The translations under genes and the position numbers were made by a program. The notes below the pieces were generated by a model. That model worked only from the letters and a program-made list of their open reading frames with translations, was not told where the DNA came from and did no database searches. 33,251 nucleotides of DNA from positions 1-33,251 of the forward strand of contig DHQH01000064.1 of NCBI GenBank assembly GCA_002410125.1, read 5' to 3'. The stretch comes from Alphaproteobacteria bacterium UBA5343. GTDB taxonomy: Bacteria > Pseudomonadota > Alphaproteobacteria > RF32 > UBA5343. Below are positions 3,553 through 31,779 of this stretch, one piece after another. How positions within the stretch are numbered: position 1 is the first letter of the stretch; the number at the start of each line of letters is the position of its first letter.

Positions 3553-3661
3553 TTTTAATTTTTCCTTTGTTTTGTATTCATCTCAATTTAAAGAAATAGA
3601 AAATTAATTCAAGTAAAATTTAATTAATTAACAAGTATCTAGTTTCTTTAAAGATAATAGA

Positions 3662-4633
3662 TTAAATTTTGATTAATCCAGCACCCCAAGTAAAACCACC
3701 ACCCATGGCATTAATCACTACTACATCACCTTTTTTGATCTTACCAGAATTAACATTTTCTGATAGAGCCAAAGGAATAGATGCAGCAGAAGTATTTGCA
3801 TGATTTTGTACGGTAATTACCACTTTTTCGTGAGCAATACCTAGCTTTTTACCTGTGCCTTCAATAATTCTAATATTTGCTTGATGAGGAACTAACCAGT
3901 CCACATCTTCTACAGATAAACCTGCATCACTAATAACTTCGTTTGCAACGGAAGTAAGATTAGTAATTGCATGTTTGAAAACTTCTTTACCATTCATATG
4001 GATAAAACCAGCTGTTTTTGTTATAGATGGACCACCATCTGTTGCTAAACTATCATAAAGTCTACCATCAGAATAAATTTTAGTACTAAGAACACCTTCT
4101 TTTTCATTTTCTTCTGTTTCTACAGCTTCTAAAACAACAGCCCCAGCTCCATCACCAAATAATACACATGTATTTCTATCTGTCCAATCAACAATCTTTG
4201 ATAATGTATCTGCACCAACTACAAGAGCTTTTTTAGCTTGCCCCATTTTCATCATATTATCAGCCATAGTCATAGCATACATAAAACCGGAACAAACAGC
4301 CTGCACATCAAATGCACATCCCTTTGCTCCAAGCATGCCTTGTAATTTTGTGGCTGTTGATGGGAAAGTATTATCAGGTGTAGTCGTACCCATAACAATT
4401 AAATCAATATCAGCAGCATCAATTTTTGCATATTCTAATGCTTTTGTAGCCGCCTTAAATGCTAGCTCAGATGTATATTCATCATCTTTTGCAATATGTC
4501 TTTTCTTAATGCCAGTTCTCTCAGTAATCCACTGATCATTAGTTTCAACCATTTTTTCCAAATCATGGTTAGTTAACACTTTTTCCGGCAAATAATGCCC
4601 AAACCCCGTAAGTTTAGAACAAATAACTGTCAT
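3662..4633 (-). CDS. fabH: beta-ketoacyl-ACP synthase III
   Basis: 323 aa. Active-site Cys context AVCSGF, plus HQANIRI and GGGFTWG motifs. Confidence 0.95.
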   Translation of the reverse strand: MTVICSKLTGFGHYLPEKVLTNHDLEKMVETNDQWITERTGIKKRHIAKDDEYTSELAFKAATKALEYAKIDAADIDLIVMGTTTPDNTFPSTATKLQGMLGAKGCAFDVQAVCSGFMYAMTMADNMMKMGQAKKALVVGADTLSKIVDWTDRNTCVLFGDGAGAVVLEAVETEENEKEGVLSTKIYSDGRLYDSLATDGGPSITKTAGFIHMNGKEVFKHAITNLTSVANEVISDAGLSVEDVDWLVPHQANIRIIEGTGKKLGIAHEKVVITVQNHANTSAASIPLALSENVNSGKIKKGDVVVINAMGGGFTWGAGLIKI

Positions 4634-7140: not shown

Positions 7141-7848
7141 CTATGCAGCAAATAAAGAATAGGCTTGTGTAGCATTAGCATATAAAGCAGATTCGTCTTC
7201 AATAACTCCTCCTGCTAATTTCTCGCTATAACTAACTACACCATCTTCATTGGTGTCAAGCTCATCATATTCTTCCGAAGATGATTCACCTCCACCACCA
7301 GTAGGTCCAACCCCTCCACCCTTTCCGCCAGGAGGAGGTCCAGCCTGAGCCATTTGCTCTTCTGATACCAAACCTGTACCATCTTCATCTAAAGATGCAA
7401 AAAGTTGAGCAGCTTCTTCCTTACTAACACCTTCTGGTCTAGCAGCAATAAATTCTGCTTCACTTAAATAACCATCACCATCAGTATCAGCACTACTAAA
7501 CATATCACTTCCTTTAGTAGAAGTACTATTCTCTAATTCTTCTATCATTTCTATAATAGAAGCCAACATATCTTCAGCTATTGCTTCAACAGAGCTACCA
7601 ACTACAGCTGGTCGCCCATTAGGAGGAGGTGCACCTTTAGCCATCTGCTCTGCAGATAGACTACCTGTTCCCTCACTATCTAATTCTGCAAACTTTTCAC
7701 TAGCTTGTGATTCGCTTACACCATCAGGCCTATTTAAAACAAATTCTTCCTTTGATACACTACCGTTTCCATCAGTATCAATTCGGCTAAACATATCTTG
7801 TCGTGCATATTGCATTTGACCAGCTGATATTAAAGAAACACTATCCAT
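7141..7848 (-). CDS. EF-hand calcium-binding repeat protein
   Basis: Five DxDGxG-type loops (DTDGNGSVSKEE, DSEGTGSLSAEQ, DTDGDGYLSEAE, DEDGTGLVSEEQ, DTNEDGVVSYSE). ATG at 7848 is preceded by AAGGAGAAG. The track start at 7920 is rejected. Confidence 0.8.
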   Translation of the reverse strand: MDSVSLISAGQMQYARQDMFSRIDTDGNGSVSKEEFVLNRPDGVSESQASEKFAELDSEGTGSLSAEQMAKGAPPPNGRPAVVGSSVEAIAEDMLASIIEMIEELENSTSTKGSDMFSSADTDGDGYLSEAEFIAARPEGVSKEEAAQLFASLDEDGTGLVSEEQMAQAGPPPGGKGGGVGPTGGGGESSSEEYDELDTNEDGVVSYSEKLAGGVIEDESALYANATQAYSLFAA

Positions 7849-8024
7849 GTTCTTCTCCTTCAAAATATTTTGGTTAAACACAAAATTTAAGTGATAATAA
7901 TCACAAACCATTACTATCACCCTAAAACTTATGCAATTTTTATACCTAAACCAAACAAGTCATTTTCTTTATATAGGTATATTTCTTGCATATACTCATA
8001 TAAGATCATCAAAGGAGATTAATT

Positions 8025-8784: not shown

Positions 8785-8909
8785 AATCTGAAGGATTTTG
8801 TGCCAGTAGAAGTAAACTTTATTTTTCAATGTGGTTTCGCGTATAAGTAATACGTGAACGCCTCATTTAAAAATCAATTTACGATTAATGGTGCAAAAGA
8901 CAAAGATTA
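8785..8909. repeat. MITE-like palindromic element, copy A (125 bp)
   Basis: Ends AATCTGAAGGATTTTGTGCCAGTAGAAG ... ACGATTAATGGTGCAAAAGACAAAGATTA form imperfect terminal inverted repeats. The nusB stop codon (8907-8909) lies inside the right arm. Confidence 0.8.
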
Positions 8910-14282: not shown

Positions 14283-15947
14283 GTGTTAAAAGAAATATTC
14301 AATAAACCTAATAATCGTTATAATACTTTTGAAGTTTTACCTTTTAATACTAACAGAGAGATTTTACACAATACTATTTCCTGTTTTTCAACTTATGTAA
14401 AGTATGAAGATGAATCTGAACTAATTGATAATATATCCAACAATACCTATTCTATACAAAATACAATAAATAAAAAAAACATAAGCAAAATTCACAATAA
14501 AATTAATAAAAATATAAATAAAAAGTATAAATTGTATAGATTAAATAGATTATCTAATAACACAGATGAATATAAAGATTTCAAGAAATTTGAAAAATTA
14601 TTACAAGAAAGTAACATCGAAAATATTGATGATAATCTATTATTACTTGTTTCTAGCAAATATAAAAAAATTGAGACTAATAACTTTATTAGAAAACAAA
14701 TTATTAGATATATAAATAAAAATACAAATCTATCAAAAATAAATTCTGATAGAAACAAACACAAAAACATAGCTTTAGTTACTGGAGCACCAGCATCTGG
14801 AAAATCTAGTGTTGTCGATATGTATAAAAGTTTATCTTTTAATAATATGAATTTTAATCAGGTTATTAAGATAAATCCTGACTACTACAAAGAGCTATTG
14901 CTAGATACTAAAGGTTTTAATGAAAGTGATATAATAAACTTTGGTTCATATACACACGAGGAATCTGCTATCATTAACGATATGGTTATAAGTGAATGGA
15001 TAAAAAAAGAAAATAAAAACAAACATTCCCATTTAATGATAGACACAAGCAATGCATCCCCTTGGTATATAGATATTATACAAAACACGAACAAACACGG
15101 GAAACTTGATATATTATCTGTTACTGTTAACACCCAAAATGCTTTAGAAAGGTCATACACAAGAGGAAAAGAAAAGAGTAGATTCGTTCCCACTAAATTA
15201 TTGCTTGCGAGACATAAAGAGCAACTAGGTATATTTATAAATAATACTATACATTATAACGAGTTACCTATCAGAATTTTTTCTAATGATGTTGATTTTG
15301 GAGAAGTTATTAAAGATACTCTAAAAAAGAGAGCTAATGCAGACACAATAGAAATCTACGATATGAAATCAGCTGTAGAGTTTTGGAATAAACAGTATAT
15401 TAATATAGATGCTGTAAATGTTGAAGAAATACAAACAAAAGAAGATGAATATAATGAGGCATTAATAGGTTTTGCCAAAAGAACAGGTAAAGAAGTTAAG
15501 TTATTTGATGTTGAGGGTAAGCAAGTTATAGCTAATGTTACAGAAAATGGTTTTGAAATATTAAATAGATTTGAATTCAATAAGGTAATTGATAAAGCAG
15601 GATATCAAGAAGAAAAGAAAATACCTGAGTTAGGTAGCTTAATTAATAAACATAAAGGAACTTTCAGTAATAAAGAACCTGAAGCAATTAAGAAACCTAT
15701 AAAAGATGAAGAATTAGAAGAAATAAATAATAATTTAGGTTCTACATTTGAAAGAAATAAAGGAATAGCAAAAATACTTAATAGTCTCATTAGGTCTAAA
15801 GATAAGTTATTAGGTAAAGAAAAGAATAACCGTGAAGAGAACAATCAAAAAGATAGTAACTTAACTAATGATATTAACGAAAAGAATAATAAAATATCTG
15901 ATATTATTAATAGCCTTAAAATTGCTAAAGAAAAAAATAATAATTAA
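14283..15947 (+). CDS. zeta-toxin/AAA-like P-loop kinase-domain protein with Asn/Lys-rich extensions
   Basis: Walker A ALVTGAPASGKSS and a Walker-B-like HLMIDTS. The first in-frame Met lies after the P-loop, so the start must be GTG 14283 or a non-canonical codon upstream. The frame is open back to 14169. Confidence 0.55.
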   Translation: MLKEIFNKPNNRYNTFEVLPFNTNREILHNTISCFSTYVKYEDESELIDNISNNTYSIQNTINKKNISKIHNKINKNINKKYKLYRLNRLSNNTDEYKDFKKFEKLLQESNIENIDDNLLLLVSSKYKKIETNNFIRKQIIRYINKNTNLSKINSDRNKHKNIALVTGAPASGKSSVVDMYKSLSFNNMNFNQVIKINPDYYKELLLDTKGFNESDIINFGSYTHEESAIINDMVISEWIKKENKNKHSHLMIDTSNASPWYIDIIQNTNKHGKLDILSVTVNTQNALERSYTRGKEKSRFVPTKLLLARHKEQLGIFINNTIHYNELPIRIFSNDVDFGEVIKDTLKKRANADTIEIYDMKSAVEFWNKQYINIDAVNVEEIQTKEDEYNEALIGFAKRTGKEVKLFDVEGKQVIANVTENGFEILNRFEFNKVIDKAGYQEEKKIPELGSLINKHKGTFSNKEPEAIKKPIKDEELEEINNNLGSTFERNKGIAKILNSLIRSKDKLLGKEKNNREENNQKDSNLTNDINEKNNKISDIINSLKIAKEKNNN

Positions 15948-18994: not shown

Positions 18995-19026
18995 CAAAAA
19001 AAGAGAGTGGTACTTTCACCACTCCC
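18995..19026 (-). terminator. rho-independent terminator of the hydG transcript
   Basis: The minus strand reads GAGTGGT-GAAAGT-ACCACTC followed by TCTTTTTTTG. It lies distal to palindromic element B. Confidence 0.7.
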
Positions 19027-19093
19027 TATTTATATTTTAAGAGATTACAGGAGAAAGATAGCAGTCTGTCGATTGCGACTAGTAGCCCCCCTA

Positions 19094-19218
19094 AATCTGA
19101 CAGATTTTGTACCAATAGAAGTAATTTAAGAAATTTTGCGATTGATTTTAGCCTTTACTAAATGACCTGAGCAAAATATTCGAAGAATCACAATTAGTGG
19201 TGCAAAAGATGAAGATTA
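19094..19218. repeat. MITE-like palindromic element, copy B (125 bp)
   Basis: AATCTGACAGATTTTGTACCAATAGAAG ... ACAATTAGTGGTGCAAAAGATGAAGATTA. The hydG stop codon (19216-19218) lies inside the right arm. The central ~55 bp are about 90% identical to copy D. Confidence 0.8.
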
Positions 19219-20679
19219 AAAATAGATGTCCCTCTCACCTTTATTAGAAATCCTTGAAAGAGCCTCTTTCACTTTTACTTTCATATCCCCCTCATCCATT
19301 TTTTCAAATTCTTTCCTGATAAGCTCCATACCAACTTTTTTAGTTTTCTCACTTGCATAATCATTTAGATATTCCGAAAAAGTACACATCGCATTTGGAG
19401 TACAACATTTTTTAATAAAGTTCGACTTAGCCAATCCCATAAAATGATCCCCAGTTCTGCCTAACCTATAACAACCAGTGCAAAATGACGGAATATAATC
19501 AAGTGTTGTAGCTAAATCACAAATCACCTCATCAAGAGGTCTTTCATCCCCAATTGAGAATTGCTGTTCTTGAGGTACATTAGCTTTCATATCAACATAT
19601 CCTCCTGGATAAGTCCTAGATGCTGCCGAAATTTGCGAGATTCCAAGTTCCAAAAGTTCTCTTCTAAATTCTGTATTTTCTCTAGTTGATAAAATCAACC
19701 CAGTATAAGGAACAGCCAATCTTAAAATTGCAATAATTTTTTTAAACTCATAATCACTCATTTGATATGGAGGTTGATATGACATTTCAGAACCAAGTGC
19801 TGGCTCAATCCTTGGGAAAGAAATTGTATGAGGTCCCACTCCAAATTTATCTTCTAATTCTTCCGCATGAGCAAGAAGTCCTAAAACTTCAAACTTATAA
19901 TCAAACAACCCAAACAAAGCTCCCGTTGCCACATCATCAAGCCCTGCTTCTTGTGCTCGATGCAATGCATATAATCTCCATTTGTAATTAGTTTTATTAC
20001 CACTTATATGCATCTTATTATAAGTCTCTGTATGATAAGTTTCTTGAAAACATTGATAAGTTCCAATATTAGCATTTTTAAGAGTTCTAAAACCTTCCAC
20101 ATTCAAAGGAGCACAATTTATATTAACCCTTCTAACCTCTCCTGACGGATTAGTTTTTGTTGCATAAACTTCATCAATAGTATGAGCCAACCATTCAGGA
20201 GAATAATCATACTCACCATAAACAACTAAAACTCTTTTATGTCCCATCCCTTCAATAACACTAACCTCTGCTTTAATTTCTTCATCGGTTAAAGTCTTTC
20301 TAACTAATTCTTTATTTGTTTTTGCAAAAGCACAATAAGCACACACATTTTTACAAACATTAGAGATATAAAGCGGAGCAAATAACACCATACGATTACC
20401 ATAAATTCTTTGCTTAACTTCTTTAGCTAGTGCAAAAATTTCTTCATCTAAAGCTTTATCTTTATTTTGTAATAACACAGCTGTTTCATATTGAGAAAGT
20501 CCCTTATTATCAATATCTCTAGCCTTATCTAAAATATCTTTTACTTCTTGTTTATCTGCTTTTTTTGCCTTCTCTAAAATATTAAAAATATTTTCTTCAT
20601 CAATAAAATTAGGCAACTCATCAGCTTTAGCAATTTCTTTTTTTAATTGCTTTGCATATTCTTTTGAAATCATTTTCAT
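19216..20679 (-). CDS. hydG: [FeFe]-hydrogenase maturase HydG (radical SAM tyrosine lyase)
   Basis: 487 aa. Radical-SAM CKNVCAYC (Cx3Cx2C), GHKRV, GPHTISFPR and a C-terminal SFCTGCYRLGRTGDHF...KKCC (CX2CX22C-type) cluster motif. Confidence 0.88.
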   Translation of the reverse strand: MKMISKEYAKQLKKEIAKADELPNFIDEENIFNILEKAKKADKQEVKDILDKARDIDNKGLSQYETAVLLQNKDKALDEEIFALAKEVKQRIYGNRMVLFAPLYISNVCKNVCAYCAFAKTNKELVRKTLTDEEIKAEVSVIEGMGHKRVLVVYGEYDYSPEWLAHTIDEVYATKTNPSGEVRRVNINCAPLNVEGFRTLKNANIGTYQCFQETYHTETYNKMHISGNKTNYKWRLYALHRAQEAGLDDVATGALFGLFDYKFEVLGLLAHAEELEDKFGVGPHTISFPRIEPALGSEMSYQPPYQMSDYEFKKIIAILRLAVPYTGLILSTRENTEFRRELLELGISQISAASRTYPGGYVDMKANVPQEQQFSIGDERPLDEVICDLATTLDYIPSFCTGCYRLGRTGDHFMGLAKSNFIKKCCTPNAMCTFSEYLNDYASEKTKKVGMELIRKEFEKMDEGDMKVKVKEALSRISNKGERDIYF

Positions 20680-20691
20680 TTGTTCTATCCC

Positions 20692-20931
20692 TTACACTAT
20701 AAGACTTTTAACTTTAATTCCTGACATCTGCCCTAACTTACCAGTTAGCTCACCTATATCATCTGTTGTTGACTCCACAACTACAGAAATAATACTAATG
20801 CCTCTTTCTTTGTAAGGAATACCAAGCCTACCGATAATCTTATCGCCAAACCCTGATAATAATTGATTTACATTGTGTGCTTGTTCTCTATCCATCACAA
20901 TAATCGTGATCGTACAGATTCTTTTTTCCAT
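20692..20931 (-). CDS. TM1266-family iron-only hydrogenase system regulator (small ACT/NikR-C-like)
   Basis: 79 aa. The pattern ICTITIIV.DRE....VN.LL..F...IIGRLGIPYKERGISIISVVV is as I recall for this family. It lies 12 nt upstream of hydG. Confidence 0.75.
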   Translation of the reverse strand: MEKRICTITIIVMDREQAHNVNQLLSGFGDKIIGRLGIPYKERGISIISVVVESTTDDIGELTGKLGQMSGIKVKSLIV

Positions 20932-22160: not shown

Positions 22161-22195
22161 TTTTTTACGATTAATCGTGCAAAAAACGAGGATTA
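22161..22195. repeat. solo right-arm copy (C) of the palindromic element
   Basis: ttttttACGATTAATCGTGCAAAAAACGAGGATTA contains the 12-bp palindrome ACGATTAATCGT. The tyrA stop codon (22193-22195) is inside it. Confidence 0.65.
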
Positions 22196-23068: not shown

Positions 23069-23213
23069 ATTCTTCTTCTTTATTCTTTGATGATTATATA
23101 TTCTAGAACTTACTCTGCTTTGAAATAGCTTTCAAACTCGCTCTTCGCTTACCTATGACACCTTTAATAAGAGATAGAGTCCATCACTTATAAACTCAGT
23201 CTTCGCTCGTTAT

Positions 23214-23319
23214 ATTAGGTGAGTTTTAGGCGATAAGAAATTTTGCGACTGATTTTAGCAATTACTAAATGACTGGAGCAAAATATTCGCAATCAACGAC
23301 AAAATCACCAATAGAACTA
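23214..23319. repeat. MITE-like palindromic element, copy D (~106 bp)
   Basis: Left arm TTAGGTGAGTTTTAGGCGATAAGAAATTTTGCG. The reverse complement of the right arm is TAGTTCTATTGGTGATTTTGTCGTTGATTGCGAATATTTTGC. The motB stop TAG (23317-23319) is at the outer edge. Confidence 0.75.
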
Positions 23320-30722: not shown

Positions 30723-30750
30723 AAAAAAAACCTGCTCATTAAAAAACAGG
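30723..30750 (-). terminator. weak terminator-like hairpin with a T8 run downstream of rpsD
   Basis: The minus strand reads GCCTG-TTTTTTAATGAG-CAGG-TTTTTTTT. The stem is short. Confidence 0.3.
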
Positions 30751-30803
30751 CTTTCAATTTTATTTCTCTATTTTAATCTTCTTACTACCCCAAATAAGTT
30801 GGG

Positions 30804-30929
30804 TAGTCTAGTGAGTTTTACACGAATAGAAGTTAATTAAGAAAAGCCAAAACTTGAGCTTAGCAATTTACTAAGTTAGTTTTGGCTTATTCGAAAATTC
30901 ACGATTAGTCGTGTAAAAGACACAGACTA
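30804..30929. repeat. MITE-like palindromic element, copy E (126 bp, best-preserved hairpin)
   Basis: Outer arms TAGTCT/AGACTA. Middle arms TTTTACACGA (30816-30825) / TCGTGTAAAA (30909-30918). Inner arms AAGCCAAAACT (30844-30854) / AGTTTTGGCTT (30878-30888). The loop is centred at about 30866. The rpsD stop TAG is 30927-30929. Confidence 0.85.
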
Positions 30930-31541
30930 ACGAGAGTAGAACTCGATTACTAAGTTCGGTTCCATTGACACTGGATATGGAACATCGTCTAATTTTGGAG
31001 CAAAGCTGTATTTTACTTTAAAGTTCTTTTCATCTGATTCGATATATTCTGGAACTTCTCTTTCTTGTGATGCCATAGCTTCAATAACCATTGGAATTTG
31101 TCTTGAGCTTTCTGCAACTTCGATTACATCACCTGCTTTTACCACATATGACGACACATTTACTTTTTTACCATTAACTAGGATATGTCCGTGGTTGATG
31201 AATTGACGAGAAGCAAATACTGTTGGTACAAATTTTGAGTGATATACTACTGCATCTAATCTTGATTCTAAGATACCGATTAAGTTTTGTGCAGCATCAC
31301 CTCTTCTTCTGATTGCTTCTGCATAGTATTTTGCAAATCTTTTTTCTGATATGTTACCATAGAATGTTTTTAATTTTTGTTTAGCATGTAATTGTACAGC
31401 ATAATCTGTTGGTTTTTTTCTTCTTTGACCATGTTCACCTGGTCCATATTCTCTTGTATTTACTGGAGATTTAGCTCTTCCCCATAAATTGATGCCATAA
31501 CGACGATCAATTTTCATCTTTTTGTTATTAATACTTTTCAT
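30927..31541 (-). CDS. rpsD: 30S ribosomal protein S4
   Basis: 204 aa. The [12 protein letters not shown]..., S4 domain [10 protein letters not shown] and [11 protein letters not shown] motifs are present. Confidence 0.95.
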
Positions 31542-31717: not shown

Positions 31718-31779
31718 ATATTGAGTTTTCTTAAAAATTAATTTGCGATTAGTCGTGCAAAAGACGAGGACAGAGGCTA
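31718..31779. repeat. miniature copy (F) of the palindromic element abutting a start codon
   Basis: TATTGAGTTTTC...TTTGCGATTAGTCGTGCAAAAGACGAGGACAGAGGCTA contains the hairpin CACGA-CTAA-TCGTG equivalent. It ends 1 nt before the ATG at 31780. Confidence 0.6.

Follow-up and report, generated by a model that had tools for sequence, protein, structure and literature searches.

The RUP elements of Streptococcus pneumoniae, which are mobilised by IS630-Spn1, and the Correia/NEMIS elements of Neisseria are hairpin-forming MITEs associated with TA dinucleotides; a TA is found at the insertion site, and the Correia hairpins are substrates of RNase III (PMC2229807). The termini of GTAG-tagged REPs often provide TAG stop codons, and G-T pairs in the stems of these repeats have been taken to indicate that they are transcribed (Di Nocera et al. 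2013, PMC3733652). Some copies of the Coxiella burnetii MITEs QMITE1 and QMITE2 reach 1-3 bp into the 3' end of a functional gene (2 bp at ubiB, 3 bp at CBU_2020 and 1 bp at kdgK), and a role in RNase III processing has been proposed for the QMITE hairpin (PMC5896051).

The placement of bacterial palindromic repeats is usually described loosely, as intergenic or near genes. In the 33,251-nucleotide stretch of DNA analysed here (the window), palindromic elements are placed to the exact base at the ends of five unrelated genes. In related genomes, different elements have made use of the same junction at the stop codon, one base of which appears to come from the element.

The window and its host lineage

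The window corresponds to a contig of 33 kb assembled from a beach-sand metagenome (ENA ERZ937827 / SRR1569871). It has a G+C content of about 31%, and the GC skew on its + strand is negative throughout. Its genes include those for GcrA, S4, NusB, NrdR, GlyA, MotA/MotB and HydG. The best named matches of its ribosomal protein S4 were Rhodospirillales-like, with about 70% identity, and only two other sequences (from the relatives R1 and R2) reached 93%; these matches indicate that the host is an uncultured, poorly sampled low-GC alphaproteobacterium. The genome is compact (12.6% non-coding). Among 32 window genes, 22 end in TAA, nine in TAG and one in TGA. As TGA is almost unused, nearly every gene end in the window is a potential TA/R site.

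The window also encodes HydG with a TM1266-like regulator (19216-20931; [FeFe]-hydrogenase maturation), an EF-hand protein of 259 aa (7141-7920) and a zeta-toxin-domain protein (14283-15947), whose gene lies within a stretch of 25% G+C. Such a combination of genes is not usual among alphaproteobacteria and may point to a lifestyle that is anaerobic or associated with a host.

Six copies of a palindromic element

Repeat finding, together with an HMM built from the copies, identified six window copies, each of them on the + strand. Copies A, B and E are full, G is a full copy of a shorter variant, and C and F are partial:

8785-8909, + strand: copy A, full type-1; its right end holds the nusB stop, TTA at 8907-8909 (TAA)
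19094-19218, + strand: copy B, full type-1; its right end holds the hydG stop, TTA at 19216-19218 (TAA)
22164-22195, + strand: copy C, partial, gene-proximal arm only; ends on the tyrA stop, TTA at 22193-22195
23209-23319, + strand: copy G, type-2 variant without the TAGAAGT segment; ends on the motB stop, CTA at 23317-23319
30804-30929, + strand: copy E, full type-1 palindrome (nhmmer E=7e-31)
31731-31779, + strand: copy F, partial, gene-proximal arm only; CTA end, followed by ATG (31780)

The elements are 110-130 nt long (typically about 125 nt) and non-coding, and each of the six reading frames of the copies contains at least one stop codon. They have terminal inverted repeats, in which outer and middle arms pair over about 20 positions. 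A preliminary description of this DNA had reported outer arms TAGTCT and AGACTA in copy E with the rpsD stop inside them, a TAA stop with an AATCT far arm in copies A and B, and middle arms that change on both sides together, and all of this can be read directly from the sequence. In copy E, TAGTCT (30804-30809) pairs with AGACTA (30924-30929), and the stop of rpsD, TAG, is the CTA at 30927-30929 within the right arm. In copies A and B, the corresponding outer arms are AATCT...AGATT. Copy E has TTTTACACGA (30816-30825) and TCGTGTAAAA (30909-30918) as its middle arms, versus TTTTGTGCCA and TGGTGCAAAA in copy A.

The full copies each fold end to end as a single long hairpin, with stabilities at z -3.3 to -8.7 relative to shuffled sequence (0 of 200 shuffles were as stable). 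An unpaired TAGAAGT opposite CGATTAGT is kept in all type-1 copies, and the two arms are thus consistently unlike. When we compared the two strands of the type-1 copies, the + strand (antisense to the genes) folded better, at -39.4, -29.6 and -47.3 kcal/mol versus -26.2, -24.4 and -43.5 kcal/mol for the gene-sense strand. This is due to G-U pairs, and the type-2 copies have no such bias. On the + strand of the type-1 copies, 14 pairs were G-U and two A-C when flank pairs were left out (14 versus 6 in the raw count). We considered these strand-specific pairs as proof of an RNA structure and rejected them, since most are shared by descent and the type-2 copies have none; for the same reason, they were not used to choose between RNA and DNA as the level of constraint.

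A search of the window for perfect stems that begin at a stop codon, run over all its stops, did not discriminate. The fabH stop (3640-3664) is followed by TAATCTATTATC, which matches TAATCT, the first six bases of copies A and B, and the similarity ends there. The match may have arisen by chance, or it may be all that is left of a former copy.

Copy E and the rpsD locus

The features around copy E, in addition to the copy itself, are the following:

30927-31541, - strand: rpsD, ribosomal protein S4, 204 aa (ORF, homologues); C-terminus EFYSR
30768-30803, - strand: remnant of an older type-2 element, distal arm, 36 nt (alignment)
30726-30755, - strand: terminator-like hairpin with a T run, downstream of rpsD

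The sequence of copy E was identical in an independent Logan assembly (L002), and copy E is therefore not an assembly artefact. The remnant stands directly after it and is orthologous to the distal arm of the element found at the rpsD stop of R1 and R2; the 13-mer AAGATTAAAATAG of this remnant occurs once in the window, against 0.01 expected.

Copy E is placed between the rpsD stop and the terminator-like site at 30726-30755. A terminator-like site (19002-19027) also lies downstream of copy B, and a terminator hairpin comes after copy C at tyrA, which encodes prephenate dehydrogenase. With terminators downstream of E, B and C, the elements lie in the 3' UTR, between stop and terminator, and are probably transcribed together with the upstream gene.

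Placement on native stop codons

Five of the six window copies (A, B, C, E and G) end exactly on a stop codon, namely those of nusB, hydG, tyrA, rpsD and motB. The register is identical in all five, the same arm faces the gene in every case, and all five genes are on the minus strand. For random intergenic placement, five of six copies on stops has P ~4e-12, and if insertion is restricted to intergenic TA dinucleotides P is ~3e-6; both nulls were computed with the elements removed, leaving 4,200 non-coding bases and 513 intergenic TA in the window. The coincidence of these copies with stop codons is not due to chance.

The only window copy off a stop codon is copy F, which abuts the ATG of a + strand TPR-methyltransferase gene. 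The GAGG motifs of copy F stand where the ribosome-binding site would be. In R1, the TPR-methyltransferase gene has its own AAGGA site and no element.

We compared the C-termini of the anchored proteins with those of homologues. S4 ends in EFYSR in every homologue, including two without the element. The HydG tail [ED]RD[IL][FY][FYL] stands at the same position in 13 homologues (ERDIYF here, mostly ERDLYF among the homologues), and NusB ends in RSSEF in both the window and R2. These comparisons support native C-termini for S4, HydG and NusB and insertion at a pre-existing stop, and replacement of the C-terminus was rejected on the same grounds.

Empty sites and exchanged elements in relatives

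The rpsD locus of a more distant relative with the same gene order (L127; S4 72% identity, 31% G+C) reads TAA, 17 nt and then a terminator, with no element. Likewise, hydG carries no element in L129 and L131. Copies were absent from the more distant relatives L127 and L129-L131, and from a second R1 contig (L132).

In R1 (L121; assembly ERZ23499948) and R2 (L124; SRR22455134), whose S4 is 93% identical, rpsD ends in TAA, and a type-2 palindrome resembling copy G begins at this stop. Pairing of the stop with the far arm involves its third base in R1 and all three bases in R2. The nusB gene of R2 (L134) ends in TAG, and the palindrome that we observed flush with this stop is a different one, X (TAGTTA...TAGCTA); downstream of it is a type-1 distal-arm remnant, GCAAAATCCTTCAGATTGG, orthologous to copy A. 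At two loci, rpsD in the window and nusB in R2, a full element at the stop is thus found upstream of the remnant of a different, older one.

X belongs to a second, unrelated-looking family of palindromic repeats. In the window this family is seen as an inverted repeat at 2697-2822, about 15 nt downstream of the stop of a merR-like gene, its relative at the nusB stop of R2 being at L134 1025-1125; beside the window repeat is a direct repeat of 39 nt (2602-2640 / 2683-2721, 95% identical). In R1 (L121 2417-2830), the distal arm of the rpsD element and a terminator-like hairpin are repeated two to three times in tandem across a run of N, which could be a real duplication or a scaffolding artefact.

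We also searched further sequence collections. A gapped two-arm pattern run on JGI metagenome contigs gave one true extra full copy (L120, type-1); a match in L119 was discarded as chance, as it lies inside a dehydrogenase gene. A degenerate 17-nt pattern run on genome contigs was too short, and gave only chance single matches (L003-L118). Viral contigs gave only one chance match, in a coding region, and a blastn search of copy E against plasmids gave no match. All conclusions rest on about 10 loci in a barely sampled lineage. The stop-flush full palindromes number only seven, with L120 as one further full copy; as the rpsD and nusB loci are each common to relatives, this makes about six to eight independent events.

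The third stop base and maintenance of the hairpin

Seven stop-flush full palindromes were compared: A, B, E and G from the window, those at rpsD of R1 and of R2, and X at nusB of R2. The third base of the stop was paired with the far arm in all seven, without exception. TAA went with an A-T pair in A, B, R1-rpsD and R2-rpsD, and TAG went with a G-C pair in E, G (C23317 paired with G23209) and X. The helix always closes at the third stop base; only three of these palindromes pair the TA as well.

The same gene may have either stop. The rpsD stop is TAG with copy E and TAA in R1, R2, L127 and L128, and the nusB stop is TAA with copy A and TAG with X in R2. The third stop base, as judged from these loci, goes with the element and not with the gene, and this places the element boundary at TA/R, where TA would belong to the host, R to the element, and the last base of the far arm would be the complement of R.

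Compensatory changes within the stem were evaluated in an alignment of A, B, E and L120, the four full copies of type 1. Six of the 19 consensus pairs had changed on both sides, and 94.7% of cells were paired, compared to 31.6-51.3% when the partner was slid by one to three columns. For four out of five covariation measures, the observed values were reached by 0-2 of 500 shuffles; the fifth, which counts further pair types, was not above the shuffles (197/500). The compensatory changes are real, resting on four sequences, and would fit a constraint at the level of RNA, of single-stranded DNA or of matched inverted repeats alike.

The preliminary description had further proposed that the stop lies in the terminal stem and covaries with the far arm, that the hairpin is maintained, and that the element more likely inserted at an existing stop than replaced the C-terminus. 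The first is borne out with a refinement, closure being at the third base; the second agrees with the two-sided changes in the four aligned copies, and the third with the native protein ends and the empty sites.

Origin of the elements

With moderate confidence, we take these elements to be a lineage-restricted family of non-coding mobile palindromes of the MITE kind, situated in the 3' UTR and flush with the native stop. The host would give the TA of the stop, and the first base of the element (A or G) would complete it. The last base of the far arm would be the complement of this first base, so that the hairpin closes on the third stop base, and stop identity and far-arm base therefore change together. 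Mobilisation would be in trans, by a TA-cutting transposase, as for MITEs of the IS630/Tc1-mariner type (RUP, Correia). Insertion into the TA of a TAA or TAG would be harmless, since the element restores the stop, and copies would persist at such sites as a compact genome tolerates little else. As RNA, the hairpin may act as an exonuclease barrier or an RNase III site.

The dispersal of copies over unrelated loci (the six of the window, L120, R1 and R2), with empty rpsD or hydG sites in L127, L129 and L131, is consistent with mobility. TA is present at both ends in three of the seven full copies (E, R2-rpsD and X), where about 0.7 is expected by chance; copy B would be a fourth if a 1-nt asymmetry is allowed, and A, G and R1 have none. 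As TA is self-complementary, a flanking TA is not separable from the inverted repeat. Under a simple TA duplication, the site of copy E before insertion is predicted to be TAC, which is not a stop, and this site has a two-step history. Neither the 33 kb window nor about 50 kb of sequence from relatives yielded a transposase or an autonomous element whose ends match.

Cut-and-paste MITEs should insert in either orientation, and the single orientation of all six window copies speaks against simple cut-and-paste. TA targeting alone is insufficient for the enrichment at stops; either a more specific target or strong selection has to be added. Such selection, favouring copies flush with the stop and in this orientation, could be for harmlessness or for function.

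Function is the basis of the first alternative, according to which the placement reflects no insertion preference. The elements would be REP- or ERIC-like RNA hairpins of the 3' UTR, selected only at the stop and in one orientation. A ribosome on the proximal arm could couple the hairpin to termination, which could tune mRNA decay (as an exonuclease barrier or through RNase III) or ribosome release. We consider this unlikely as a full account, though far from negligible, and it overlaps with a mobile origin, as mobile elements may be co-opted. In its favour, every stop-anchored copy turns the same arm towards the gene, the asymmetric internal-loop motifs TAGAAGT and CGATTAGT are kept in all type-1 copies, and the stem changes are compensatory. 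The rpsD and nusB sites are still occupied in three lineages despite exchange of the element, which lies upstream of real terminators and is probably part of the mRNA, and REPs provide a precedent both for TAG stops from termini and for stem G-T pairs as a sign of transcription (PMC3733652). However, the G-U pairs of type-1 favour the antisense strand, the opposite of what a sense RNA predicts, with no bias in type-2; the decayed copies (C, F and the remnants) indicate that the hairpin is not always kept, and the more distant relatives do without the element at the same genes.

A second possibility is active homing, in which the machinery would recognise TAA or TAG at the end of a reading frame, or a local DNA or RNA state there, and insert at TA/R, with the base of the element rebuilding the stop. 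The same stop would be hit repeatedly, and older copies would be pushed downstream and eroded. We offer this as a speculative and rather improbable reading. If true, it would be a safe-harbour strategy like that of Tn7 at glmS, but generic for any gene end. To our knowledge, stop-codon homing is an undescribed mode of target selection for bacterial transposons.

Movement of the elements in single-stranded form, by an HUH/Y1 transposase like those of REP-RAYT or IS200/IS605 systems and with strand-specific insertion 3' of T-A-R on the lagging-strand template, seems very doubtful to us. Such insertion would account for the uniform orientation, seen here as six copies in one direction within a region of uniformly negative + strand GC skew, and for the lack of a consistent direct duplication of the target. 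The strand-asymmetric quality of the type-1 hairpins also agrees with it, as does the supply of TAG stops by GTAG-tagged REPs (PMC3733652). Yet it is the + strand that folds better, and exposure at the fork should concern the other one, the G-rich minus strand; gene orientation is confounded with replication direction in the window. Moreover, each element is one palindrome of about 125 nt with inverted ends, and not a REP of 20-40 nt or a pair of subterminal hairpins; a GTAG or CGTC tag is missing from most copies, and neither the window nor the contigs of relatives showed a gene for RAYT or TnpA.

That the overlap of stop and arm and their covariation are a coincidence, or a matter of ascertainment in an AT-rich genome where TA is everywhere and 31 of 32 stops are TAA or TAG, is barely credible: copies are very few and outer stems short (5-6 bp), but the placement of five of six exactly on stops is improbable even under the most generous simple null, the register recurs at independent loci from two other samples, and three of the seven paired third bases are in G-C pairs.

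Comparison with known systems

Several classes of palindromic element were considered and set aside. The Rickettsia palindromic elements (RPEs) described by Ogata et al. (2000, 2002) are reportedly about 100-150 bp long, belong to an alphaproteobacterium that is likewise low in GC, and preserve their hairpin through compensatory changes. They are found in frame within genes, as translated insertions. The present elements have stops in all six frames and stand after native C-termini, and the host is not a Rickettsia. The attC sites of integrons (e.g. the Vibrio cholerae repeats), imperfect palindromes 57-141 bp long, begin at the preceding stop or overlap it and form a strand-specific hairpin. 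Here, there are no RYYYAAC/GTTRRRY core sites, the ends being TAATCT.../...AGATTA or TAGTCT.../...AGACTA; the neighbours are housekeeping genes in conserved synteny (nrdR-nusB, rpsD) with no cassettes, and no integrase gene was seen. An intrinsic (Rho-independent) terminator was rejected, as no T run follows the element on either strand and separate terminators lie downstream. When the window was compared with Rfam 15, only three tRNAs reached the gathering score.

Palindromes derived from IS200/IS605 have a subterminal hairpin at each end, no inverted ends, a fixed 3' target and one orientation. The present elements are like them in having a single orientation and a fixed TAR at one end, and unlike them in being one end-to-end palindrome with inverted ends. 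With the GTAG-tagged REPs they share the form of extragenic palindromes after unidirectional or convergent genes. REPs, however, are 20-40 nt long, RAYT-linked and marked by a conserved GTAG/CGTC tag, whereas the present elements are about 125 nt long and occur with TAA as well as TAG, with no RAYT seen. A REP or REPIN was rejected on length, and also because copy E owes the GTAG at its left end (30803-30806) to chance alone, while A, B and G have none. The QMITEs have no sequence relationship to the present elements; their overlaps vary from 1 to 50 bp and concern a minority of copies, whereas a single register is found here in every anchored copy.

There is also a close resemblance to RUP and Correia. 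Like these, the present elements are within about 100-155 bp, non-coding, with stops in all frames and inverted ends that fold into one hairpin, and they are intergenic, near genes and probably co-transcribed, with a TA at the presumed insertion site. Unlike these, they have no cognate IS that we could find, and a TA at both ends is clear in only three of seven copies (four with B); there is no sequence similarity. Neither strict stop-flush placement nor a fixed orientation towards the gene is described for the RUP and Correia families.

If the pattern holds genome-wide, it would show clearly, in a natural setting, how a mobile element can spare its host by landing on the stop codon, and it would help in learning how termination and mRNA decay respond to a long hairpin placed where a reading frame ends. 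For annotation, the third bases of many stops in such genomes, together with at least the first 100 bases of many 3' UTRs, would be mobile in origin.

Taken together, these comparisons suggest that the kind of element is already known, from TA-associated hairpin MITEs, stop-supplying REPs and gene-end QMITEs, and that the present family is an unusually strict version of it. What appears undescribed for RUP/Correia, the GTAG REPs and the QMITEs is the base-exact register, the occurrence of both TAA and TAG with a matching far arm, and a stop that carries a full element upstream of the remnant of a different one.
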